From assembly GCA_964388035.1 (NCBI GenBank), contig CAYLZE010000037.1, positions 1 to 42,954 of the forward strand: a DNA stretch of 42,954 nucleotides, read 5' to 3'. Origin of the DNA: an uncultured archaeon. Its GTDB lineage: Archaea; Asgardarchaeota; Lokiarchaeia; Sigyniarchaeales; SOKP01. Made by a program: the position numbers and the translations under genes. Below are positions 3 to 42,376 of the stretch, piece after piece; the stretch's first letter is position 1, and each line of letters starts with the position of its first letter. Below the pieces are notes generated by a model. That model saw nothing but the letters and a program-made list of their open reading frames with translations. It had not been told where the DNA came from and searched no databases.

Positions 3-188
3 CCAAGAGGGCCGAGCTTGTCCATCAAGTTGATGAAAAAAACCATGCACGCTTATTTTATTGACATTGCTTCTAAAACGCTAGATTTAGAAAATGAAGC
101 ACTTAGGGAAGCCATGAAAACTCATGATTTTAGAGAATCCATGAAAGCTCTCACTACCAAAAAAGAACCCGAATTTAAAGGAAAATAA
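3..188 (+). CDS. 3' end of an enoyl-CoA hydratase/crotonase family protein (partial, runs off the window start)
   Basis: Manual translation of frame 3: ...GPSLSIKLMKKTMHAYFIDIASKTLDLENEALREAMKTHDFRESMKALTTKKEPEFKGK*. This matches the typical crotonase C-terminus (P.A....K..., T.D..E...AF..KR.P.F.GK). Confidence 0.8.
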   Translation, partial: PRGPSLSIKLMKKTMHAYFIDIASKTLDLENEALREAMKTHDFRESMKALTTKKEPEFKGK

Positions 189-303
189 AATGAATTTTAA
201 TAGTATGAATCAAGATCTTAGAAACTATGAGAGATTTTTAAAGAAGGTATAAAATTTATTTTTTTTACAATATTCTCGAAATTATTATAATATGTGTTGA
301 ATA

Positions 304-311
304 TTTATATA
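304..311 (+). promoter_or_regulatory. Putative archaeal TATA box for pyrG
   Basis: TTTATATA lies ~40 nt upstream of the ATG at 352. The AT-rich context makes this weak evidence. Confidence 0.35.
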
Positions 312-351
312 TTTTTTAAGTAAAAAATTTAATAAGAAATCGATTAAAAAT

Positions 352-2110
352 ATGCAGACCCAATGTAAATTTGTGTTAGTGACAGGCGGTGTAATGTCGG
401 GAATCGGGAAAGGAGTCGCAACTGCATCCTTAGGTAAAATTCTCCAATTTCGGGGGTTTAAAGTATCCGTGGTAAAAATAGACCCTTACTTGAACGTGGA
501 TCCCGGTACCCTCAACCCGATAGAGCATGGGGAATGTTTCATCACGGAACAGGTGTGGGATTTCAAGCCCGTACCTGAATCAGATGAAAGAGTATATAGA
601 ATATCTGAAATAGACCAAGACTTCGGTACATTCAACCATACTGCTCGTATGGTTTGGTAAATACGAAAGATTTCTTGGCATAGATATTCATCCCTCGCAT
701 AACATCACCTCCGGTCAAATATATTTATCCACGATTCTTAAGGAAAGAAAAGGCGAGTTTCTGGGGCGAACAGTTCAAATCATTCCTCATTGTACTGATA
801 TGATCAAGGAGAGATTACTTGCAATTGCCGAAGATGAAAATCTCGACGTGCTATTAGTAGAATGTGGTGGCACGGTCGGTGACTTGGAGTCGGGAATTTT
901 TCTGGAAGCGTTCAGGCAATTACGATTGGAACTCCCTAAGAATCACACGGCGTTCGTTCACGTCACGCTCATCCCATTTTCCAAAGCCGTAGGGCAACAG
1001 AAGTCTAAACCCACGCAACATTCAGTTAAGATGCTGCAGAGTGCTGGATTACAACCAGATATTTTAATAGGCCGAAGTGAACAACCTCTCGAAGAAGATT
1101 TGCGCAGAAAACTTTCCTTGTTTACGAATGTCCCAATGGAAGCCGTGGTGTCAAATCCCGATTTGGAATGTGTCTATGAATTACCCCTTTTATTCGAAAA
1201 ACAATCTACAGGAGATTATTTATGCGAATTATTAGACCTAAAAGCCAAATTAGTATCCTTTAGCGAAGTCACGAATTTCTCTGAATGGCAAAAAACGGTA
1301 GAAATATTTAAAAGTGCTAAGAAAAAAATACGTATCGCAATGCCGGGCAAGTATTTCAACATTTCCGATTCTTATATTTCGATAAATGATGCTTTAGAGC
1401 ATGCGGCAGTTTATCAAGGATACAATACCGATTTAAAAATGATCAATCTCACAGCTAAAACCAATATTGAAAAAGAATTGGCAGATTGCGATGGAATTCT
1501 GTTAACTCCTGGATTTGGAAGAAGAGCTGTGGAAGGAATGATTAAAAGTGCAGAAATTGCAATGGATAAGAAAATTCCCTTTTTAGGAATATGTTTCGGA
1601 GCGCAATTGTTTTATATAGCATATTGTAGAACACGTTTAGGATTAGAGGGAGCTAATTCCACAGAAATTGATCCTGATACCCCGTATCCCGTAGTTGATT
1701 TGTTAGAAAGCCAAAAAGGGGTGAATGAAAAGGGCGGTACCATGAGATTGGGGGGGCTGAAAGTGTTTATTAAAAAAGGAACAAAACTATTTGATGCTTA
1801 TCAAAAGCAAGAAGTTATAGAACGATTTCGACATCGTTATCATATTAAATTTGAGTTTATACCTAATGAGGCAAAGGCAAAGGAACTTATAATTTCAAGT
1901 ACCGATGATACGGGTGGAATTATTAACAGTATCGAATTAAATCGTTCTGATCATTGGATGGTGGGCACGCAATTTCATCCTGAATTCAAGTCCAGACCTT
2001 GGGAAGAAGGAACCTCACCAGTTTATTCAGCATTCGTCAAAGAAGCAATTAAATATAAGATTAAGAATAAAGGAGCAACTAAATATAAGATCAAGCATAA
2101 AGGAGATTAA
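352..2110 (+). CDS. pyrG: CTP synthase, split by a 31-nt insert; predicted spliced CDS join(352..631,663..2110), 575 aa
   Basis: The N-part has [12 protein letters not shown] and [12 protein letters not shown]. The frame from 662 reads [21 protein letters not shown]...[20 protein letters not shown] and continues into ORF 800..2110 ([20 protein letters not shown], glutaminase triad GICFGAQ...QFHPEF). Removing 31 nt gives [12 protein letters not shown]. Length 280+1448=1728 nt = 575 aa plus stop. Confidence 0.95.
632..662 (+). other. Candidate bulge-helix-bulge (tRNA-type) intron in pyrG mRNA
   Basis: Exon stem TTCG(622-625):CGAA(664-667). Central helix GTAC(626-629):GTAA(657-660), with 3 WC pairs and one G.A. 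Bulges ATT(630-632) and ATA(661-663). Intron hairpin CAACCATAC(633-641):GTATGGTTTG(647-656). Cleavage after the second nt of each bulge excises 632-662 and restores frame and motif. Confidence 0.8.
2045..2104 (+). repeat. 30-nt tandem duplication at the pyrG 3' end ([10 protein letters not shown] / [10 protein letters not shown])
   Basis: gcaattaaatataagattaagaataaagga (2045-2074) vs gcaactaaatataagatcaagcataaagga (2075-2104), 27/30 identical. Confidence 0.9.
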
Positions 2111-2114
2111 TAAT

Positions 2115-3641
2115 TTAATAATCTTCTAAAGAACGAAATTCTAAATCTTTTAGAAGGTAAGAATAGTCTTTTTTAGTTCCTTTTTTTAAGTACTCTTGAA
2201 AGCCTTGCTCACCTATCGGATATTTCTTTTGTAAAATATATAAATTATACTCTGCCTTTTTTCCCAATTCTTTTAATTTATCGAAATCATCATCATCATA
2301 AAGCGCAGTTTTCGCATATTCAATTGCAATGTTATATAGTTTCAATTCTTGTTCATTATACCTCATCCATTTAGCAAATTTATCTTTATTCAATATTTTG
2401 ACATTTCTTCTTAATTCTTTTTTAATGTTTTTAGATAATTTTATGTTTTTGTCAATTAATAAGGGAACTATTATTAATTCCCTGTAAGAGCTTTGATAAT
2501 TTTTATATAATTTATCAAATAGATTCTCTTTATATCTAGATGTCGAATAATCAATGCATTTCATTTTGATATTATCCTTTAAATTCAAAAGCGCGTTATC
2601 ACTAACAGTATTTCTCCCATCTGTTGGACTTATTTCATAAAAAGCTATATTACCTTTTCTTAATTGATTTTCTATAAAAAGATTTTCCATAATAAAATGG
2701 ATTGATAGCCTAATGATATTTGCTCTCTCGTGATTGGGAGAATAAAAGTTAATTATCCATTTTTTAAAATCTCTATTTTCAGTTCTAAACTTTTGCTTTA
2801 AATAATCTTTTATTGTCTTCCCATGAGGTCCATCTTCATCACCCCGTACCTCATTTAAATAATAGGAAACTCCACAAAAGGAACCAATTTGCTCAAAAAG
2901 GCTTTCCCACTCATTAAGATCTTCCATATTATATTTCTTCTCAAAACCTTTGGTACTTTTTCTGTTTTTTTCATACCATTCTTCAAAATCTTTACCTTCT
3001 TCTTCAAACTTTTTTTCAATTCTATATAATATCGTACGATTAGATATTTGATTTCCTGTTTTTTCCTCAAATTCTTCTGAAACTTTTGATAGAAATCCAT
3101 ATTTCTCAAATAATTGGATCCACAAGTTCAATTCTTGTTCACTATATACTGACTTGAATTTTGTTGGATTTTCTTGTTTGTATTCATTCTCCCCTTTTTT
3201 AAAGTCTATATTTTGTCTTAAAAACCTTCGCTTGATTCTATCTCTTATCGACGAGGATCTAAACACTTTATTATACACTTCTCCTAGCTTAATAGAAACC
3301 TGTCTAAAACTCGCCAATTCTTCATATAATTTCATCCAAAATAGCTCTTCTTTATCTCCATATTTCTGTAATTGAATATTTCTTTTATAACGAGCTTCCC
3401 AATTTTTGAAATCCCAATCTTTTTCTTTAAAATAATTTTGAAGTCTTTCCTTGATGGTCGTATCTGATGGACCTTCTCCTTCTTCATTTCTCAAAAGATC
3501 CTTAATATAATTATAACTTCCGAATTCTTCATACAGTTTTTTCCATTTTATTACATTTTTTTGATTATATTTTTCAATTCCATAAGTAATTTTAGGTCTC
3601 CAAGTAGAAACATCAATATCTTGTGAATTCATAAAGTCCAA
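2115..3641 (-). CDS. Hypothetical protein with four tandem ~65-70 aa HTH-like repeats and a C-terminal PD-(D/E)XK-like domain; possibly the 3' part of a longer disrupted gene
   Basis: The repeat pattern Y......W..L(Y/F)E..GS...V...L.......P...TI...(I/L)...F......F..W occurs four times. The C-terminus reads H..MEN...FYE.....SDNALL...CIDYSTS...K..K.Y.....LIIVP. The frame stays open upstream to 3809. AT content is very high. Confidence 0.65.
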   Translation of the reverse strand: MDFMNSQDIDVSTWRPKITYGIEKYNQKNVIKWKKLYEEFGSYNYIKDLLRNEEGEGPSDTTIKERLQNYFKEKDWDFKNWEARYKRNIQLQKYGDKEELFWMKLYEELASFRQVSIKLGEVYNKVFRSSSIRDRIKRRFLRQNIDFKKGENEYKQENPTKFKSVYSEQELNLWIQLFEKYGFLSKVSEEFEEKTGNQISNRTILYRIEKKFEEEGKDFEEWYEKNRKSTKGFEKKYNMEDLNEWESLFEQIGSFCGVSYYLNEVRGDEDGPHGKTIKDYLKQKFRTENRDFKKWIINFYSPNHERANIIRLSIHFIMENLFIENQLRKGNIAFYEISPTDGRNTVSDNALLNLKDNIKMKCIDYSTSRYKENLFDKLYKNYQSSYRELIIVPLLIDKNIKLSKNIKKELRRNVKILNKDKFAKWMRYNEQELKLYNIAIEYAKTALYDDDDFDKLKELGKKAEYNLYILQKKYPIGEQGFQEYLKKGTKKDYSYLLKDLEFRSLEDY

Positions 3642-17033: not shown

Positions 17034-18222
17034 TATCAAATCCCTCCGTCGCAATTCTAATACATTCATCTTTATCTCTATAGCTCGCATTGCTATAGAA
17101 GCAAGTTTTTGCAGAGTTTGTAGTTACGGGTCTCGGTAAGGCCGTCAGTAAGGGACATAAGTAGGTAAGATGAGCTCCCGATGTATCTAATATAGTTCTA
17201 TAGTCAGAATTTAGAATGGAATCTTTTATCTCTTTATTCGTGCAGATCCAGAAATTGATATTTTGAGCAATCTTTTTCCCCTTCAATTTATTAATTATTT
17301 CAATCACTTCCGGTTTACTGAGCTGGGGACAACCAATTGAAACATTCTTGGGAGCTGAATTCCATTCCGTGCTGTATTTCTCCCTCACATCCTTGATATC
17401 GCTCATGGATATTTCTACTATTTCTTCGGGTTTATCTTCTTGAAAAGCATCCTCCAAAGTTTTTGCCTCAGGCGTTTTCCCAATAACGTGTATCAATGCA
17501 ACAGCTCCCGTAGCGGCGGATGCCGCGCCCAAGTTTTTCAAGTTATCCGTGGAAATATTTTTGAACCCTTCTAATACTGGAATCCGATTTCCTGCTATTT
17601 CACCAATAATCAATCCTGTAGATGTTAAATTAAAAAGGTTTGATTTATCAATATCAGGAGAAAGGCGAAATAACACGTCTCCTTTTCTATTTTCTTTTAT
17701 ATGCAATCCATGATAGGAGGTTTTTCCTAAAATTCCGCAAGCAATATCCATTAATCCTCCTTCCCTGTTAGACCGAGCACCTATTACAGAATTTAAATAA
17801 ATAACAGCAGATGATTCGGACCAAGCACAATGCTCTTCAAATTTTGGAGCATTATCAATGAAATATGGAGTACACGTAAATCCTTTCACCCCGATTTTAT
17901 CCAAATCTTCCATCATCTGATCGTGAAGCGTAAACATGGGATATACCACGCTAAGCTCTTCTCGATAATCCATGTCGATAATAGGATCGGCAGTAGTTCT
18001 CACCTTAACTTTTAACCCTGCTTGGGCAATATCATGTAAAATCTTTGCCGATGCATTCACAAAATTTAATCCAAAATTCAGTACGGTATGCGCGGACCTG
18101 ATTTCAATTAATTTTTCCGCTCCAAAAGAATCTCCCAATTTCACGATTAATTTCATTAATTTTGAGAGCATTTCCCCCTTATTTCCGTTTAAGATATCTT
18201 CCTCTTCCTTGGTTAAAAACAT
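17026..18222 (-). CDS. Aconitase X catalytic subunit, DUF521; likely phosphomevalonate dehydratase large subunit
   Basis: MFLTKEEE..L.G, FTCTPY, AWSESSAVIYLNSVIGARSNREGG, IGCPQLS, LCP and TNSAK. The three Fe-S Cys are present. The substrate is inferred from the archaeal modified mevalonate pathway. Confidence 0.85.
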   Translation of the reverse strand: MFLTKEEEDILNGNKGEMLSKLMKLIVKLGDSFGAEKLIEIRSAHTVLNFGLNFVNASAKILHDIAQAGLKVKVRTTADPIIDMDYREELSVVYPMFTLHDQMMEDLDKIGVKGFTCTPYFIDNAPKFEEHCAWSESSAVIYLNSVIGARSNREGGLMDIACGILGKTSYHGLHIKENRKGDVLFRLSPDIDKSNLFNLTSTGLIIGEIAGNRIPVLEGFKNISTDNLKNLGAASAATGAVALIHVIGKTPEAKTLEDAFQEDKPEEIVEISMSDIKDVREKYSTEWNSAPKNVSIGCPQLSKPEVIEIINKLKGKKIAQNINFWICTNKEIKDSILNSDYRTILDTSGAHLTYLCPLLTALPRPVTTNSAKTCFYSNASYRDKDECIRIATEGFDNE

Positions 18223-18489
18223 TTTTCACACTCTCTAGTTATTACCTTGATTATTACATCTCAATTATGATGATTTCAAATAAAAGTTTTATTGTGTTTT
18301 GAAAACTCGTTAGATACCCTATGATGAATTATTCTCAACGGGATAATAATAAAAATTAAAAAAAAATAATAGTTGTTGTTTCTTATACCTTTTAAAGCCA
18401 ACATGTAAAAAAAATAATTACTATATCAATTGGTATTTGAAATACTAAAGATATTAGTTGATATAAAACGTGATTTGAGGTATTACAAC

Positions 18490-21400
18490 TTGCCGTTAAA
18501 CAAAACGATTAAAAAAGCTTTAGTTTTAGGTTCGGGAGGAATTAAAATCGGTCAAGCAGGAGAATTTGACTACTCGGGCAGTCAAGTGTTAAAAGCTTTA
18601 AATGAAGAGGGGATAGAGACAATTCTTATCAACCCTAACATAGCGACCATTCAAACTGATCCTCACATGAGCTCAAAAGTTTATTTACTGCCCATCAATG
18701 TCAAATACGTGGAAGAAGTCATCAAGAAGGAAAAGCCGGATGGGATCTTATTAGCATTTGGAGGGCAAACTGCCTTAAATGTGGGTGTGGAATTAAAAGA
18801 ATATGGGATCCTTGAGAAACATGGTGTCAAAGTATTAGGCACGCCCATAGAAGCCATAGAAGCCACGGAGGATAGGGATTTGTTTGTAAAAGCCATGCAT
18901 AAAGCTAATGCAAAGGTGTGTCGCAGTAAAGCAGTGAACTCCTATACGGAAGCACTTAAAGTAGCGGAAGATTTTGGGTTTCCCTTGATGATAAGAGTTG
19001 CATATACGTTAGGGGGACAAGGTTCCGGAATTGTTCATAACGCGCAAGAATTTGAAAAAATGGCTAGAAGGGGAATCGCGCAATCCCGGATTAATCAAAT
19101 TTTGATTGAAGAGAGCATACAAGGCTGGAAAGAAATAGAATATGAAGTCGTAAGAGATCAGGCAGATAATTGTTTTATCAATTGTAACATGGAAAATTTT
19201 GACCCGGTAGGTATTCATACGGGAGAATCCATTGTTGCCGCGCCATCACAAACGCTTACCAATGAAGAATATCACATGTTGCGTTCCGCTTCAATTCGGA
19301 TTATCCGAAGTTTGGGAATAATTGGAGAATGTAATATACAATACGGGCTCGATCCAACTTCAAAAGAATTTCGCGTGATCGAAGTAAATGCTCGGCTTTC
19401 CCGCTCCTCTGCCTTGGCGTCGAAGGCTACTGGTTATCCTTTAGCATATATAGCAGCAAAATTGGCTGTAGGTTATAAGCTGCCGGAGTTAAAGAATAAA
19501 ATCACGGGTATTACGACGGCTTGCTTCGAGCCTGCACTGGATTATATCGTATTAAAGATTCCCAGATGGGATCTTACTAAGTTTATACGGGTAGATCGCC
19601 AAATTGGGAGTCAAATGAAATCAGTAGGAGAGGTCATGGCAATCGGAAGGACCTTCGAAGAGGCCCTTCAGAAAGCAATTCGAATGCTGGATATTGGCAT
19701 GAAAGGCTTTGTGGCTAATAATCTACCACCCATCCAGGATATGGATGAATTAAAATACGATTTACGGCATCCCACGGATTTGAGATTATTCCGGATTGCA
19801 GAAGCTATAAAAAAGGGTATTTCAATCGATGAAATTTATCGCTTATCACGCGTGGATAAATGGTTTTTATACAAGCTGAAAAATATTGTCGATGTTGAAT
19901 TCCAATTATTAAATTTAGATTTTTTAGAAACTCCAAGAGAAGAATTAAAATATTGGTTTACTAGAGCAAAACGATTTGGATTCTCGGACGGGCAAATTGC
20001 AAAAATTTTAGGCGTGGATACTATAAAAGTTCGAAATTTAAGGAAGAACTTTAAAATTCTCCCATTCGTGAAGCGAATTGATACACTAGCTGCTGAATGG
20101 CCTGCTACTACTAATTACCTCTATTTAACCTATAGTGCCGAAGAACATGATGTTGATTTTGAGAAAGAACGACAACAAGTAGATTTAAGAAAGGTAATTG
20201 TCCTTGGCAGTGGTACATATCGCATTGGAGCAAGCGTGGAATTTGATTGGGGCTCCGTGAATTGCTTGTGGGGATTAAAAAAATTGGGTATAAATCAAGC
20301 CATCATGATTAACTATAATCCCGAAACAGTCTCGACAGATTATGATATTTCAGATAAATTATATTTTGAAGAATTATCGGGAGAAAGAGTTATAGATATT
20401 TGCGAATATGAAAAAGCAGATGGAATCGTGGTATCTGTTGGGGGACAAATTGCTAATAATCTCGCTTCCAAATTTTATAAGTATTCGGAAGTTTTCAGAA
20501 AATCCAATTTAAACATATTGGGAACCCATGGAAGCAGGATAGATATGGCGGAGGATCGCTCGAAATTTAGCAATTTATTGGACCAACTTGAAATTAAACA
20601 GCCGGAATGGAATGTATTAACGGAAAGTGAGGAAGCTTTAGCATTTGCTAATAGAGTAGGATATCCCGTTCTTGTGAGACCCTCTTACGTATTGAGTGGT
20701 GCGGCAATGCGTGTTTCTTACGATAAGCGCACCCTTCAAGATACTTTAGAACTAGCAGCAGCAGTTTCAAGGGAATATCCCGTAGTAATTTCTAAATTTT
20801 TTACTAATGCCCGAGAAGTAGAATGTGACGGAATCTGTGATGGAAGAAACGTGTTTATCGGGGCGATTGTAGAGCATATCGAGAATGCAGGCATTCATTC
20901 CGGCGATGCTACTATGACAATAGGTCATTACACCATTTCAGAGAAAGTAATTGATACGATTGAGGATTACGCAAAGAAGATTGCGTTAGCATTACAAATT
21001 AAAGGTCCATTTAACGTGCAATTTCTTGTAGAAAATGATGATGTATTTGTAATAGAATGTAATCTACGTTCCAGTCGATCAATGCCGTATGTATCGAAAA
21101 CGCGGGGGATCAATCTCATGAGACTTGCGGCAGAAGTTTTTCTCGGCAAGCAAATCCCCCAAAGATTATTAACTCTACCTTACGGAGAATACGTTTCCGT
21201 GAAAGCACCCATGTTTTCTTTCATGCGCTTAGATAAAGCCGATCCCGTATTGGGAGTGGAAATGGCAAGTACAGGTGAAGTAGCATGCTTAGGGGATACT
21301 TTTTCCGAAGCTTTATTGAAAGCGCTGGAGGCAGCAGAAATGAAAATTCCGATTAATGGAGGAAACGTGCTAATCTCGGTGGGAGGGGAAGAATTGAAAA

Positions 21401-21804
21401 AGAAAGTGATTCCCCTGGCAAAGGTATTAAAATATCTCGGTTTTACTATATTCGCAACGGAAGATACAGCTCAAGCCTTGAAAGAAAGTGGAATTTATGC
21501 CGTAAAACTCTATAAAATACACGAATCGGGAATGGAACCTAACATAATGGGCTGCCTCCAGAATGGCGCCGTTGATTTAGTCATTAACATTCCGCATCCT
21601 ACAACGACCGAAGAAAATTTCAGAACTATCTTGGAAGATGAATATAAAATAAGAAGGCTATCCGTCGATTATAATATTCCCGTATTAGTAAATCTTCAAT
21701 TGGCCGCGGCTGTAATTAATGCAATTGAAAAAATTAGAAGACGATCGTTAGAAATTAAATCCTTGGATGAATATCATGAAGAATTAGAGGAAGTATACTG
21801 GTAA
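18490..21804 (+). CDS. carB: Carbamoyl-phosphate synthase large subunit
   Basis: LGSGGIKIGQAGEFDYSG, NPNIATIQTD, two ATP-grasp domains and a C-terminal MGS domain. Start moved to TTG 18490 (MPLNKTIKK), which is preceded by GAGGT. Confidence 0.97.
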   Translation: MPLNKTIKKALVLGSGGIKIGQAGEFDYSGSQVLKALNEEGIETILINPNIATIQTDPHMSSKVYLLPINVKYVEEVIKKEKPDGILLAFGGQTALNVGVELKEYGILEKHGVKVLGTPIEAIEATEDRDLFVKAMHKANAKVCRSKAVNSYTEALKVAEDFGFPLMIRVAYTLGGQGSGIVHNAQEFEKMARRGIAQSRINQILIEESIQGWKEIEYEVVRDQADNCFINCNMENFDPVGIHTGESIVAAPSQTLTNEEYHMLRSASIRIIRSLGIIGECNIQYGLDPTSKEFRVIEVNARLSRSSALASKATGYPLAYIAAKLAVGYKLPELKNKITGITTACFEPALDYIVLKIPRWDLTKFIRVDRQIGSQMKSVGEVMAIGRTFEEALQKAIRMLDIGMKGFVANNLPPIQDMDELKYDLRHPTDLRLFRIAEAIKKGISIDEIYRLSRVDKWFLYKLKNIVDVEFQLLNLDFLETPREELKYWFTRAKRFGFSDGQIAKILGVDTIKVRNLRKNFKILPFVKRIDTLAAEWPATTNYLYLTYSAEEHDVDFEKERQQVDLRKVIVLGSGTYRIGASVEFDWGSVNCLWGLKKLGINQAIMINYNPETVSTDYDISDKLYFEELSGERVIDICEYEKADGIVVSVGGQIANNLASKFYKYSEVFRKSNLNILGTHGSRIDMAEDRSKFSNLLDQLEIKQPEWNVLTESEEALAFANRVGYPVLVRPSYVLSGAAMRVSYDKRTLQDTLELAAAVSREYPVVISKFFTNAREVECDGICDGRNVFIGAIVEHIENAGIHSGDATMTIGHYTISEKVIDTIEDYAKKIALALQIKGPFNVQFLVENDDVFVIECNLRSSRSMPYVSKTRGINLMRLAAEVFLGKQIPQRLLTLPYGEYVSVKAPMFSFMRLDKADPVLGVEMASTGEVACLGDTFSEALLKALEAAEMKIPINGGNVLISVGGEELKKKVIPLAKVLKYLGFTIFATEDTAQALKESGIYAVKLYKIHESGMEPNIMGCLQNGAVDLVINIPHPTTTEENFRTILEDEYKIRRLSVDYNIPVLVNLQLAAAVINAIEKIRRRSLEIKSLDEYHEELEEVYW

Positions 21805-37984: not shown

Positions 37985-39634
37985 TTAAAATTCCAACCGT
38001 TTTAATACGGGATATCGACGTCCTATTCCAAAGGCGCTGGGACTAATTCTAATTGTTTGAACTAATTGACGTCTTTTATATTCCGAATTTAAGTATAATT
38101 TCCTCACTTTTAATATAGTATCTTTATCAATCCCTTTCTGCTTTAAATTATCGAACTCGTTTCCTATTCCGTGTTCGATAATCTCCTCCAAAACGGAATC
38201 TAACGTTTCATAAGGAGGAAGAGAATCGCTATCTTTCTGATTTTCTCTTAATTCAGCCGTGGGAGGGCGACTTATAATTCCTTTCGGAATTATTTCTTTG
38301 TCTTTATTTATGTAATTACAAATATCATAAATTTGAACTTTTAAGAGATCCCCAGGAATGTTTTTTCCTCCCGAGGTATCCCCATATAATGTACAATATC
38401 CCACTCCAATCTCGGACTTGTTTCCGGTTGAAACCAACAACCAGTTAAACTTATTCGAGTAATACATGAGAATTGTAGCACGAATTCTAGCTTGTAAATT
38501 CTCATCTGCTATATTGAACTTTAAGTTACCCAATACACTTGCAAGAGATGTTTCATAACCATCAAAAATTTCGCCGATAGGATGAATGATGTAATGAATT
38601 TTCAAATTTTCACAGAGTTGGCGAGCCAATGTGACGCTTTCGTCGGAAGTAAATCTCGTGGGCATCATCACGCAATTTACTTTCTCCTGTCCTAAGGCCC
38701 TGGCACAAATATATGCCGTGAAAGCGGAATCTACTCCCCCGCTCAGTCCTAAAACTACTCCATTAAAAACATTACTTTTCTGATAATAATCATGCAAATT
38801 TAATGATAAAGCTCTTAACACATCCTCTCTCCAATCTGAAGGAGGAATGTCTTGCGATGATGACATTTCGTTTTCAACATCTACATCTATCATTCTACTA
38901 TCTTCTTCGAATGCTTTTGCTTTATATACTAAATTTCCCTTTCGATTAACAATAAAACTCTGACCATCATAGACTATTTCATCAAGACCCCCCACCATGT
39001 TCACGTATATAATAGGGACCGAAAGTTCCTTAGCTTTTTTCGAGACTAATTCTTTCCTTATCTCGAATTTACCATAATGGAAGGGAGAAGCGTTAATCAC
39101 GGTTAATAATTCTGCACCATTATCCACTAAATTCTGTGCTACTTTAATTTCATAATTCTTATCCCAAATATCTTCGCAAATTAGAATTCCCACGTTTATT
39201 TCTTTAATTCTAACTGGCATGAACTTATCATCGAATGAGAAATATCTTCGCTCGTCAAAAATATCATAATTTGGTAATAGTCTCTTATTTTCAATATATA
39301 GAACTTTATTTCCTCTTATAACCATAGCAGAATTATAAAAAGGTTGAAAACTATTTCTGATTTCAGTTGGTTGCGTGAATGTACCTAAAATAATAACTGG
39401 CTTGCTGTTCAAGTTAATAATCTCTTGGATGGCCTTTTCATTTTGCTGTTGAATCAAGGGGTCATGAATGTGATCCATGAGGGGATATCCTACTAAACTC
39501 ATTTCGGGAAATATAATAAGATCAGCTTGCTGATTTTTTTTAATAACTTCCCCGATTTTTCTTGCATTCCCAGGTACATCTGCCACGATGGGATTTATTT
39601 GGCCCAAAACGACCTTCAATTTTTTATTACTCAT
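37985..39634 (-). CDS. nadE: Glutamine-dependent NAD+ synthetase
   Basis: Nitrilase domain (FPE, KRLLPNYDIFDE.RYF, ICEDIW) fused to a synthetase domain (GLSGGVDS, ENLQARIR, TGNKSE, GYCTLYGD, PTAEL). Confidence 0.96.
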   Translation of the reverse strand: MSNKKLKVVLGQINPIVADVPGNARKIGEVIKKNQQADLIIFPEMSLVGYPLMDHIHDPLIQQQNEKAIQEIINLNSKPVIILGTFTQPTEIRNSFQPFYNSAMVIRGNKVLYIENKRLLPNYDIFDERRYFSFDDKFMPVRIKEINVGILICEDIWDKNYEIKVAQNLVDNGAELLTVINASPFHYGKFEIRKELVSKKAKELSVPIIYVNMVGGLDEIVYDGQSFIVNRKGNLVYKAKAFEEDSRMIDVDVENEMSSSQDIPPSDWREDVLRALSLNLHDYYQKSNVFNGVVLGLSGGVDSAFTAYICARALGQEKVNCVMMPTRFTSDESVTLARQLCENLKIHYIIHPIGEIFDGYETSLASVLGNLKFNIADENLQARIRATILMYYSNKFNWLLVSTGNKSEIGVGYCTLYGDTSGGKNIPGDLLKVQIYDICNYINKDKEIIPKGIISRPPTAELRENQKDSDSLPPYETLDSVLEEIIEHGIGNEFDNLKQKGIDKDTILKVRKLYLNSEYKRRQLVQTIRISPSAFGIGRRYPVLKRLEF

Positions 39635-40006
39635 TTTGTTAACCTATAGAAATTTCTAAATACATGACGAACATCTATTCAGATGAAATATTTTTTTATT
39701 CAAGTAATGATTATTTTGATTTGCAAAATAATTTCACTTAATTTCCTATTAATAGTACAAGAAATAATACATGACAAAAGTCTGAAAAAAAGATAATTAA
39801 AAAAGAAAGATAAAAAGCTTATATAGAATTTCGAAAAAATCCTGCTCTCAAATTTAAAATATTTGATAAATATGAAAAAAAATACATTTAAAATTAGGTA
39901 CGAGTTCGATTGGTCCAGCAACGGTCATATCAACCTCATTAATGATGAAAAAAAAGAAATACTTGCTCGATTTTTCGGCATTTATTAAAAAAAATAAAGA
40001 CCTAAT

Positions 40007-40846
40007 TCATACAATATTGCCGCAATAATTTCCGCCGAATGGTCTCTTTGATATTGGTTTTATGACCTTAAACGGTTTGTTAAAAAGCTTGGTTTCTTCT
40101 AAACCAAATTCAGAGCAGAATTCTTTGAGGTAAGGTTTTATTTCTTCCATCTCCTCCGCACGCAAGTCAGATAATTTTGAACCTATCCCTAATTTAGGAG
40201 TTAAATCCTCATCAGTTCTTAGTAAAATCTTACCTCTATGGATCCCCGTTCCCAATTCCTTCCCACAAATCGGATCTCCACTTTCCACCACCTCTCCATT
40301 TTGAAGAATTTTTAGTCCTAATACGATGATCAAGCCTCCTGCCATGTATTCTCCCAGAAAGTCTTTAGCGGTGCCACCAACAACTATAATCGGAAACTTA
40401 TCCTTATATTCCTTGATATGAATGCCTACTCTATACCCCACGTCTTGCTTGATAAAGATTTTTCCGCCTCGAGTTGATAATCCTATGACATCCCCCGCAT
40501 CTCCGTGCACGATGATAGTACCATCGTTCATCGTATTTCCTGCTTGATCCTCGCAATTTCCATTCACGATAATTTTAGGACCATCCATGAATATACCCAA
40601 ATCATTTCCTGGTAATCCGTTTATGATGATTTCATGATCTCCTTTCAAGGAGGCCCCAATAAATCTCTGTCCGCATACTTTATTTAGAATTATCGTTCGA
40701 AAATCGTGATAAATTGCCTCGTGAATGAGTTTATTTAAATCTTTATAATTAAGCGGATTTCCATTCGGAGCCGCATCAATTTCTATCATTTTTTCTTCAT
40801 TATTTTTTGATTTCAATTCCATTTTTTGATTATTTTCTGTCATCAT
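40007..40846 (-). CDS. Archaeal glutamate synthase subunit, GXGXG domain (GltB domain 3)
   Basis: GQRFIG, GNDLG.FM.G, GNTMNDG, GYRVGIH, DFLGEYMAGG repeats. Confidence 0.9.
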   Translation of the reverse strand: MMTENNQKMELKSKNNEEKMIEIDAAPNGNPLNYKDLNKLIHEAIYHDFRTIILNKVCGQRFIGASLKGDHEIIINGLPGNDLGIFMDGPKIIVNGNCEDQAGNTMNDGTIIVHGDAGDVIGLSTRGGKIFIKQDVGYRVGIHIKEYKDKFPIIVVGGTAKDFLGEYMAGGLIIVLGLKILQNGEVVESGDPICGKELGTGIHRGKILLRTDEDLTPKLGIGSKLSDLRAEEMEEIKPYLKEFCSEFGLEETKLFNKPFKVIKPISKRPFGGNYCGNIV

Positions 40847-40855
40847 TTTTTTAAC

Positions 40856-42376
40856 TCACTCTCCTGCATGTTTTACTCCTAAAATTTCAGCAATATGAGG
40901 ATTCGGGCCAATATATCTTAAGCGATCCCTATTTGATCTTAAGGATTCAACTGAATCTATTCCCATTGCCCCGAGAACTTCCTTCAATTCTTCATTCCAA
41001 GAATGAAATAGATTAATTAACCTATTACGAGCAACATCGATATCTAATCTTTTGACAAGATACTCTTGTTGAGTGGCGATCCCCCAAGAACAGAGACCTC
41101 TGAAGCACTGTTGACACACGCGGCATCCCATCGCAATCAACACGGGCATTCCAACCATCCCCACGTCAGCCCCTAATGCTATTGCTTTTATTAAATCCGC
41201 AGAATATCTTATCGAACCTCCTGCAACCAATGTTATCTCATCTCGCAAGTTTTCTTTACGCAATCTTTCATCCACTGCCGCTATTGCTAATTCAATCGGA
41301 ATTCCCGCATGATCCCTGATAATTCTGGGAGCGGCTCCTGTCCCCCCTCTAAAGCCATCAATTGTAAGAAAATCAGCGCCTCCCCGCACGATTCCCACGG
41401 CAATGGGTGCCGAATTATGGACTGCGGCAATTTTAACTCCAATTGGAACTTTATATCGAGTAGCTTCCTTCAAAGCAGCGATTAATTGAGCTAAATCCTC
41501 TATTGAATAAATATCATGATGAGGGTAAGGTGATAACGCATCGCTCCCTTTGGGGATCATGCGTGTCTCTGAAATTAAAGAATTTACTTTTTCTCCAGGT
41601 AAATGCCCACCATGTCCGGGTTTTGCTCCTTGTCCGATCTTAATCTCTAACCCAGCAGCATTTTGTAGATAATTTATATCAACACCAAATCGACCAGAAG
41701 CTATCTCGGTGATGATATTTTGACCATATTCGTAAAAATCCGGATGCAAGCCCCCTTCTCCTGATCCTGCCAAGATGTTTAACTCTTTAGCGGCTTGGTA
41801 GATGGCCATGCAGGCATTATAGCTTATGGAACCCAAGCTCATGTGTCCCACCATTATGGGCATATCAATTTCAAAATTAGGCATGAATTCTGTTTTTAAA
41901 GAAATCTTATTGGAATCGTCTGGATCCTCCAAAAATTCGATTTGTTTTGGCTTCCGTCCAAAGAATACCTTGGTTTCGATAGTTTCCCGCAAGGGATCAA
42001 TACTTGGATTCGTGACTTGACAAGCATCTAATAATAAATCATCAAATATTGAAGGAATGGGACGATCATTTCCCGTCGCACTTAATAAAACCCCTCCATT
42101 TCCGGATTGTGACCAAATTATATTGCGAATTCTTCTATCATAATTGCCATGAGGGGGTAAATAGGATGGGTTCTTTACGATTCTAATGGCTTTCCCCGGA
42201 CACATCACGACGCATCGTTGACATGCCACGCACTTGGAATCATCTGCAACGATCCTTTCTCCATTAAATGAAAGGGCTCCATAAGAGCAATGATTGGTGC
42301 ATCGTTTACATTTTTTGCACGACTCCCGATCAATCTCAACCTTAAAATAGGATTCTATTAAATGAGTTAACGGCAT
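40856..42376 (-). CDS. Archaeal glutamate synthase FMN-binding subunit with N-terminal 2x[4Fe-4S] ferredoxin (GltB domain 2)
   Basis: Two CxxCxxCxxxC motifs, MSLGSIS, GEGG, ASGRFGV, EIKIGQGAKPG.GGHLPGEKV, HHDIYSIEDL, DGFRGGTGA, GC..CQQC..G.C. Confidence 0.94.
   Translation of the reverse strand: MPLTHLIESYFKVEIDRESCKKCKRCTNHCSYGALSFNGERIVADDSKCVACQRCVVMCPGKAIRIVKNPSYLPPHGNYDRRIRNIIWSQSGNGGVLLSATGNDRPIPSIFDDLLLDACQVTNPSIDPLRETIETKVFFGRKPKQIEFLEDPDDSNKISLKTEFMPNFEIDMPIMVGHMSLGSISYNACMAIYQAAKELNILAGSGEGGLHPDFYEYGQNIITEIASGRFGVDINYLQNAAGLEIKIGQGAKPGHGGHLPGEKVNSLISETRMIPKGSDALSPYPHHDIYSIEDLAQLIAALKEATRYKVPIGVKIAAVHNSAPIAVGIVRGGADFLTIDGFRGGTGAAPRIIRDHAGIPIELAIAAVDERLRKENLRDEITLVAGGSIRYSADLIKAIALGADVGMVGMPVLIAMGCRVCQQCFRGLCSWGIATQQEYLVKRLDIDVARNRLINLFHSWNEELKEVLGAMGIDSVESLRSNRDRLRYIGPNPHIAEILGVKHAGE

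Follow-up and report, generated by a model that had tools for sequence, protein, structure and literature searches.

A 31-nucleotide insert in the CTP synthase gene of a Lokiarchaeia archaeon is very probably an mRNA intron removed by the tRNA-splicing pathway

The window analysed here, the whole 42,954-nucleotide stretch of contig C37, belongs to a 5.47-Mb metagenome-assembled genome (MAG) that is 96.7% complete and 7.3% contaminated. It carries pyrG, the gene for CTP synthase, on the forward strand. The frame that opens at the pyrG start (position 352) runs from 352 to 660 and ends at a TAA (658–660), and the gene continues in another frame to 2110. Excision of 31 nucleotides, 632–662, fuses the two frames into a 575-residue CTP synthase open to 2110. 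Exon 1 (352–631) comprises 93 codons and the first base of a Tyr codon, with positions 1–62 of PF06418 at 367–552. The candidate intron (632–662) is in phase 1, shifts the frame and holds the in-frame TAA. Exon 2 (663–2110) completes the synthetase domain and adds the glutaminase domain, with PF06418 positions 70–265 at 653–1240. pyrG is readable as a functional coding sequence only once the insert has been removed. A first-pass annotation of the same DNA had described this break, and its position, its 31-nt length, the TAA and the coordinates of the surrounding helices were all re-derived unchanged. The annotation had also suspected an Asgard archaeon as the host; the pyrG protein, 70–77% identical to those of Promethearchaeota (Lokiarchaeia) versus ~40% to bacterial enzymes, backs this assignment. 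Compared with the bacterial enzymes, Lokiarchaeia pyrG has ~16 additional residues ahead of an E-I-D-Q-D-F motif (552–600 in the window, from the family alignment), and in most family members the motif reads Y-S-R rather than Y-E-R. Two regions of the window, 15440–21804 and 37985–42376, contain carA and carB, separated by an aconitase X gene of opposite orientation, together with genes for a glutamine-dependent NAD synthetase and for the subunits of a split glutamate synthase, all with intact frames. Five other contigs of the MAG (C191, C197, C200, C204 and C211) have a GC content above 45%, against 33% for the genome, and are probably contaminants.

The insert is crossed, with zero differences, by contigs from two salt-marsh runs (the source sample possibly being one of them), and it recurs letter for letter in a contig from a JGI metagenome; it is hence real DNA and not the mis-assembly against which the first-pass annotation had advised checking. 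A profile search of the genome found a single gene with the CTP synthase N-terminal domain, namely this pyrG, and the other intact copy that would have spoken against splicing was looked for and is absent from the genome. One further tblastn match was rejected, as it covers the glutaminase domain alone and lies on a contig of 69% GC that is evidently foreign or a contaminant. The genome contains no second copy of the 31-nt insert, and the insert matches none of its tRNA introns. Rfam covariance models gave no match at E ≤ 1 in window positions 150–2300, and a scan for sigma-70 promoters and terminators, a model unsuited to archaea, returned nothing.

The insert and its flanks can be arranged into a motif of the bulge-helix-bulge type (BHB). 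In the central helix, an exon strand (626–629) faces an intron strand (657–660) that holds the stop codon, forming three Watson–Crick pairs and one G626·A660 apposition. Both strands are invariant in all eight genomes that carry the insert (see below); within the intron, 657–660 is constant among these carriers and the remainder is variable. Three-nucleotide bulges lie at 630–632 and 661–663. In each bulge, EndA cleaves the bond that joins bases 2 and 3 (PMC2738675), and this rule, together with the register test described below, places the predicted cuts at 631/632 and 662/663. The remainder of the intron forms a hairpin (633–656) of nine pairs with a 5-nt loop (642–646) and a bulged base at 654. 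On the exon side, a helix pairs 622–625 with 664–667, and an extended stem pairs 599–620 with 673–689. All of these positions had been given correctly beforehand, including the outer helices 615–620:673–678 and 599–606:682–689, except that the hairpin 633–641:647–656 had been drawn without its bulged base.

The proposed BHB fold also needed qualification: the motif is present, but it is relaxed and lies off the minimum-energy fold, 2–4 kcal/mol above the best. The region 590–700 folds with a z score of −3.2 relative to shuffled sequences, and a motif of equal quality arises from a shuffled intron in about 1 of 20,000 trials. Forcing the BHB in ViennaRNA costs 3.4 kcal/mol here and 2.1–3.9 kcal/mol in the relatives, measured against the best fold or ensemble; the same test on three tRNA introns of this genome gave 0.8, 0.9 and 4.5 kcal/mol, a span that takes in the pyrG values. 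In the thermodynamic model the central helix has a probability of ~1%. Because the central helix contains an invariant G·A in place of a fourth Watson–Crick or G–U pair, the motif is relaxed rather than canonical, the label following a published classifier definition (bioRxiv 10.64898/2026.10.13.758758): three of four central pairs are formed, the exon helix is 100% paired, and the intron helix is 93% paired with covariation. The G·A is probably tolerated, since it occurs at the same central-helix position in two unrelated introns (L048 and L243). The mismatched A belongs to the in-frame TAA, so its conservation may serve the stop, the tuning of cleavage, or both.

A junction-pattern search of 135 genomes of the family identified a 31-nt insert at the identical site (site B) in eight, this genome and seven others, whereas a reversed control pattern gave 0 matches. 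The carriers belong to four genera, in which 2/2, 4/4, 1/1 and 1/10 genomes have the insert. Their intron sequences are widely divergent at a constant length of 31 nt. The first-pass annotation had suggested looking in relatives for same-site inserts with covarying stems, and this is what the eight genomes display. Eight of the nine hairpin pairs show compensatory, two-sided change, with 93% of cells paired across carriers; the exon helix 622–625:664–667 is 100% paired; and the outer stems are partly in fixed register, with 67% and 79% of cells paired. For the whole structure, 82% of cells are paired, compared with 30–47% when the partners are slid. Unaided, RNAalifold recovered the hairpin and the exon helix and missed the central helix. 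The site-B break was not seen in ~20 more distant genomes with a pyrG match, and a loose junction pattern applied to 400 genomes of the phylum gave background level only. Every site-B insert is 31 nt long under search patterns that permitted up to 45 nt, and an insert with an endonuclease open reading frame was not seen.

Three features show the mark of selection: the structure of the intron, the exon arms and the protein encoded by both exons. Among the carriers, pN (0.01–0.17) is far below pS (mostly 0.5–0.85, and lower in exon 2 for the closest pair) in each exon; the gene is therefore alive, its silent sites are near saturation, and the relaxed selection that would have undercut the original proposal is not found. 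The four exon codons that form the motif are the same in 8/8 carriers; none of the 67 intronless orthologues has this set, including the 12 with the same peptide. Among codons whose amino acid is invariant, only 12.5% are also codon-invariant in the carriers. The extended exon–exon duplex is stronger in carriers, with a mean of −15.3 kcal/mol versus −9.4 kcal/mol in intronless relatives with Tyr-Glu, kin that are not independent, and the exon–exon pairing of seven of the eight carriers falls within the top 3% of synonymous recodings. The eight carriers represent ~4–5 independent lineages and thus do not amount to eight independent tests.

The relatives also fix the register of excision. When 15 registers of 31 nt were compared, only 632–662 yielded F-G-T-Y-E-R in 8/8 carriers, the next best reaching 3/8. 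Within this genome, removal of 630–660, 631–661 or 632–662 gives an identical mRNA, and 632–662 was chosen among the three because the relatives single it out. All 75 orthologues keep the junction Tyr. Cuts after 631 and 662 that restore GTYE had been predicted from this sequence by itself; they prove to be the unique match of the EndA rule and the protein junction in all eight carriers. The register given by the EndA rule is the sole register that restores the peptide throughout, and structure and protein therefore agree independently.

RtcB is encoded intact in the genome (C23), and EndA is present as two paralogues, on C146 and C33. Of these, the C146 protein most resembles the catalytic subunit of Aeropyrum pernix EndA (E 1e-35); aligned to it, the Y125, H133, K164 triad is kept, as are K44 and R46 of the specificity loop, a crenarchaeal EndA loop linked to broad specificity (PMC3241643). 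The second paralogue is without the catalytic His and looks structural. Judged by these residues, the host appears to have a two-subunit EndA of broad specificity as well as the ligase. Hetero-oligomeric EndA is the enzyme type proposed to allow relaxed-motif mRNA introns (PMC2738675). The crenarchaeal-like loop of this Lokiarchaeia catalytic subunit (C146:8374–8598; L138:1156–1770) had been described in 2011 as conserved only in Crenarchaea. ARAGORN called introns in 15 of the 22 tRNA genes, several of which were mis-called (Pyl, Stop), suggesting multiple or non-standard tRNA introns; automatic BHB assignment to tRNA introns was dependable for three or four genes only.

pyrG is interrupted at another site elsewhere in the family. 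At site A, ~54 nt into the frame and within the P-loop codons, eight other family genomes have an insert of 30 nt with in-frame stops (seven genomes) or of 32 nt (G006); the loci are L220–L222, L224, L225 and L227–L229, in G006, G194, G195, G207, G215, G218, G235 and G034. The geometry is that of site B, with a compensatory change in the central helix and a weak exon helix, and the cut register fits the EndA rule within a 1-nt ambiguity. Two of the ten site-A pattern matches, G197 and G216, were dropped as lacking the pyrG Ser codon. No pyrG with both introns occurs among the genes seen.

We also scanned this genome for BHB motifs whose removal joins open reading frames. Unfiltered, the scan showed no enrichment over length+1 and length−1 controls; with a coding filter and a length of 29–32 nt it gave 21 candidates, against 5 and 10 in the controls, at thresholds set post hoc. 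As these thresholds were picked after the data had been seen, the scan provides no intron count and is not a census. For several genes, removal under the EndA rule joins contiguous Pfam positions: 143/144 in the NAD synthetase nadE (L153:1137–1166; C45:19136–19165), whose insert is absent from 20 relatives; 66/67 in a CinA-like, molybdopterin-binding gene (L145; C47:27882–27911), whose insert occurs at 29 and 30 nt among orthologues; and 78/79 in an FGGY kinase (L149; C149:3761–3790). In a ubiquitin E2-like gene, removal of a 30-nt insert (L143:834–863; C38:34333–34362; related loci L162, L189 and L190) joins Pfam positions 62/68 with linker residues lying between, and the sister species has the same insert at 31 nt. 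The AMP phosphorylase intron (L146:1226–1255, minus strand; C32:9825–9854; also L260, L262–L265, L267 and L268) occupies one site in 8/16 genomes of the family; it measures 29, 30 or 31 nt, and its four-pair central helices covary. Its Pfam fit is looser, as it is for five of the seven further BHB candidates of 29–37 nt, in genes for an alcohol dehydrogenase (L148, C50), an acyl-CoA dehydrogenase (L150, C10), a thiolase-like protein (L151, C65), an aldolase (L147, C63) and a roadblock protein (L155, C66). The other two, a CdhA-like gene (L144, C199) and a transporter (L152, C55), were picked out by motif or paralogue only, and the within-genome paralogue test is noisy. All 12 of these other candidates in the genome have four-pair central helices.

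Additional breaks were noted in relatives. The E2-like gene has a second site, with 32 nt in G008 and G015 and matching breaks in G003 and G012; in G011 (L171) a 32-nt insert lies elsewhere in this gene, with no clear BHB in the register search. The match of the G012 CinA-like gene (L244) begins at residue 92 in a 116-aa frame, its break being at a different position. An in-frame stop is present in 12/12 of the 30-nt introns found without a stop requirement, where chance would give 50–73% for each and the introns fall into three homology groups, so that the pattern is no more than suggestive.

About twelve further introns of this kind appear to be present in the genome. The first-pass annotation was right about the pyrG intron and understated its scope, as it is apparently one of many in the genome and the family. 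We consider it probable that one Lokiarchaeia family routinely splices housekeeping mRNAs, with ~30-nt hairpin BHB introns in at least a dozen genes per genome that are gained and lost gene by gene.

For pyrG itself, we hold with high confidence that the insert is an mRNA intron excised by the EndA/RtcB tRNA-splicing pathway. That a core metabolic gene should rely on tRNA-type splicing had been proposed at the start, and the relatives, the junction, the pattern of selection and the encoded enzymes all argue for it. In the proposed mechanism, the pyrG transcript would fold locally so that the intron hairpin forms, and the long exon–exon stem would draw both junctions together around the relaxed BHB. 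The two-subunit EndA would then cleave after 631 and after 662, and ligation of the exons by RtcB would restore the Tyr codon, whose first base comes from exon 1 and whose other two come from exon 2. The spliced product would be the 575-residue CTP synthase, and unspliced RNA would yield only a 102-residue dead-end peptide. EndA cleavage of the pyrG RNA, ligation by RtcB and their timing relative to translation are steps that we infer; if transcription and translation were coupled, folding would face competition from ribosomes at a point 280 nt into the frame. The G·A mismatch and the stop codon could conceivably make splicing rate-limiting and regulatable, a speculation to which we give rather low odds.

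The insert might instead be removed by some other RNA nuclease and ligase, or be excised precisely from DNA as a tiny mobile element. The relaxed motif, which is not the predicted best fold, and the patchy distribution, which suggests some mobility, lend this idea a little weight. The site-B register, however, is exactly that of the EndA rule, and the same rule joins contiguous Pfam positions in other genes; no conserved target duplication flanks the insert, it has no second genomic copy, and at 31 nt it is much too small for self-splicing. Only the insert-bearing form is seen in DNA contigs, a weak argument against DNA-level excision because contigs drop rare variants. Overall, we regard removal by a route other than EndA as very unlikely.

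Translational recoding, in which ribosomes would bypass or frameshift over the hairpin in uncut RNA as in T4 gene 60, is less likely still. The hairpin and the in-frame stop within the insert would suit it, and matched Gly codons lie 31 nt apart (625–627 and 656–658) here and in two relatives. Such take-off and landing codons are nevertheless missing in 5/8 carriers, and in 5/8 carriers any hop at codon boundaries would turn the invariant Tyr into Asn or His. The sole working register splits a codon, which excludes a ribosomal hop. Moreover, the other inserts occur at 29, 30, 31 and 32 nt at one site, in all three frames; an intron can be expected to vary in this way at one site, whereas a recoding signal, being fixed, would not tolerate it. 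Recoding would also leave the selection on exon–exon pairing unexplained.

A pseudogene or assembly error, to which the ~7% contamination of the MAG and the broken frame might point, is refuted by the presence of the insert in other assemblies and in the seven relatives and by purifying selection on both exons, and the ~97% complete genome has no other pyrG; we see practically no chance of it. An unspliced split gene, in which the 102-aa peptide would work together with a 436-aa protein started independently at ATG 800, is just as implausible, for although both reading frames exist, it would lose residues 94–139, which are conserved in the exon-2 frame of the carriers and continuous in intronless orthologues, and it gives no reason for the structure or the fixed junction codons.

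The distribution of the intron bears on its history. In a pyrG tree built without the junction region, the carriers are not one clade (AU p = 0.0003; 3–4 changes on the unrooted tree), and the site-A carriers are likewise scattered. The common length, bulge and tail of the site-B introns point to a single origin, whereas the failure of the carriers to form one clade makes exact losses or lateral exchange likely; the former could proceed, for example, through a copy of the spliced mRNA. We infer, less firmly than the splicing itself, either that a single old gain in the family was succeeded by exact losses or that the segment was exchanged laterally.

If Lokiarchaeia must splice pyrG, an essential gene of nucleotide synthesis, along with many others, the protein-coding genes of these genomes would be richer in introns than any others known in a prokaryote, among relatives of the eukaryotic host lineage, and expression of core genes would hinge on EndA and RtcB. 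In Lokiarchaeia annotations, some genes would be wrongly called pseudogenes and some proteins would be cut short, eukaryote-signature genes like the E2-like enzyme among them. Processing of mRNA before translation in relatives of the eukaryotic host would bear on proposals about the separation of DNA from ribosomes (discussed in PMC10732040). BHB introns are not spliceosomal and say nothing direct about the origin of the spliceosome. The exact junction makes the splicing claim directly testable.

The mechanism is a known one. What the literature searched does not describe is its occurrence in this gene and this phylum and, most of all, the apparent number of genes interrupted. As of 2020, reported archaeal mRNA BHB introns comprised cbf5 and one 5'-UTR case only (PMC7714728), and in the searchable literature BHB splicing of an archaeal coding sequence is confirmed for cbf5 only. 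We found no paper on BHB introns in Asgard coding genes in the literature searched, whose coverage leaves out most subscription journals. The cbf5 pre-mRNA intron occurs in Desulfurococcales and Sulfolobales (Watanabe 2002; Yoshinari 2006; Yokobori 2009, PMC2738675). Like it, the pyrG intron is short (16–44 bp in cbf5, 31 in pyrG) and lies within a conserved coding motif in an unconventional BHB; both have cuts between bulge bases 2 and 3, a hetero-oligomeric EndA, no open reading frame and patchy gain and loss (PMC2738675). The two differ in that pyrG belongs to core metabolism in an Asgard archaeon and cbf5 encodes an RNA-modifying enzyme in another phylum, in that the family has two independent pyrG sites and many more candidate genes per genome, and in that splicing was proven by cDNA for cbf5 and is predicted for pyrG. 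In Haloferax HVO_1309, mRNA is likewise an EndA substrate, its BHB intron lying in the 5' UTR, where removal appears to matter for expression (PMC7714728); unlike in pyrG, that intron is outside the reading frame and no protein sequence depends on exact ligation. Asgard tRNA introns share the motif and the enzymes, those of this genome being ~23–43 nt (ARAGORN); a 2026 preprint describes repeated gains of such introns and mentions mRNA 0 times. In pyrG, by contrast, the host is an mRNA, and the exon arms must come from synonymous codon choice. The HAC1/XBP1 transcripts of eukaryotes also contain a short, frameshifting mRNA intron whose removal takes an endonuclease for the cuts and a tRNA ligase, RtcB in animals, for the joining, but there IRE1, rather than EndA/TSEN acting at a BHB, cuts two separate stem-loops in a proven regulatory switch. 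The resemblance to pyrG is one of analogy and not of membership, regulation being established for HAC1/XBP1 alone.
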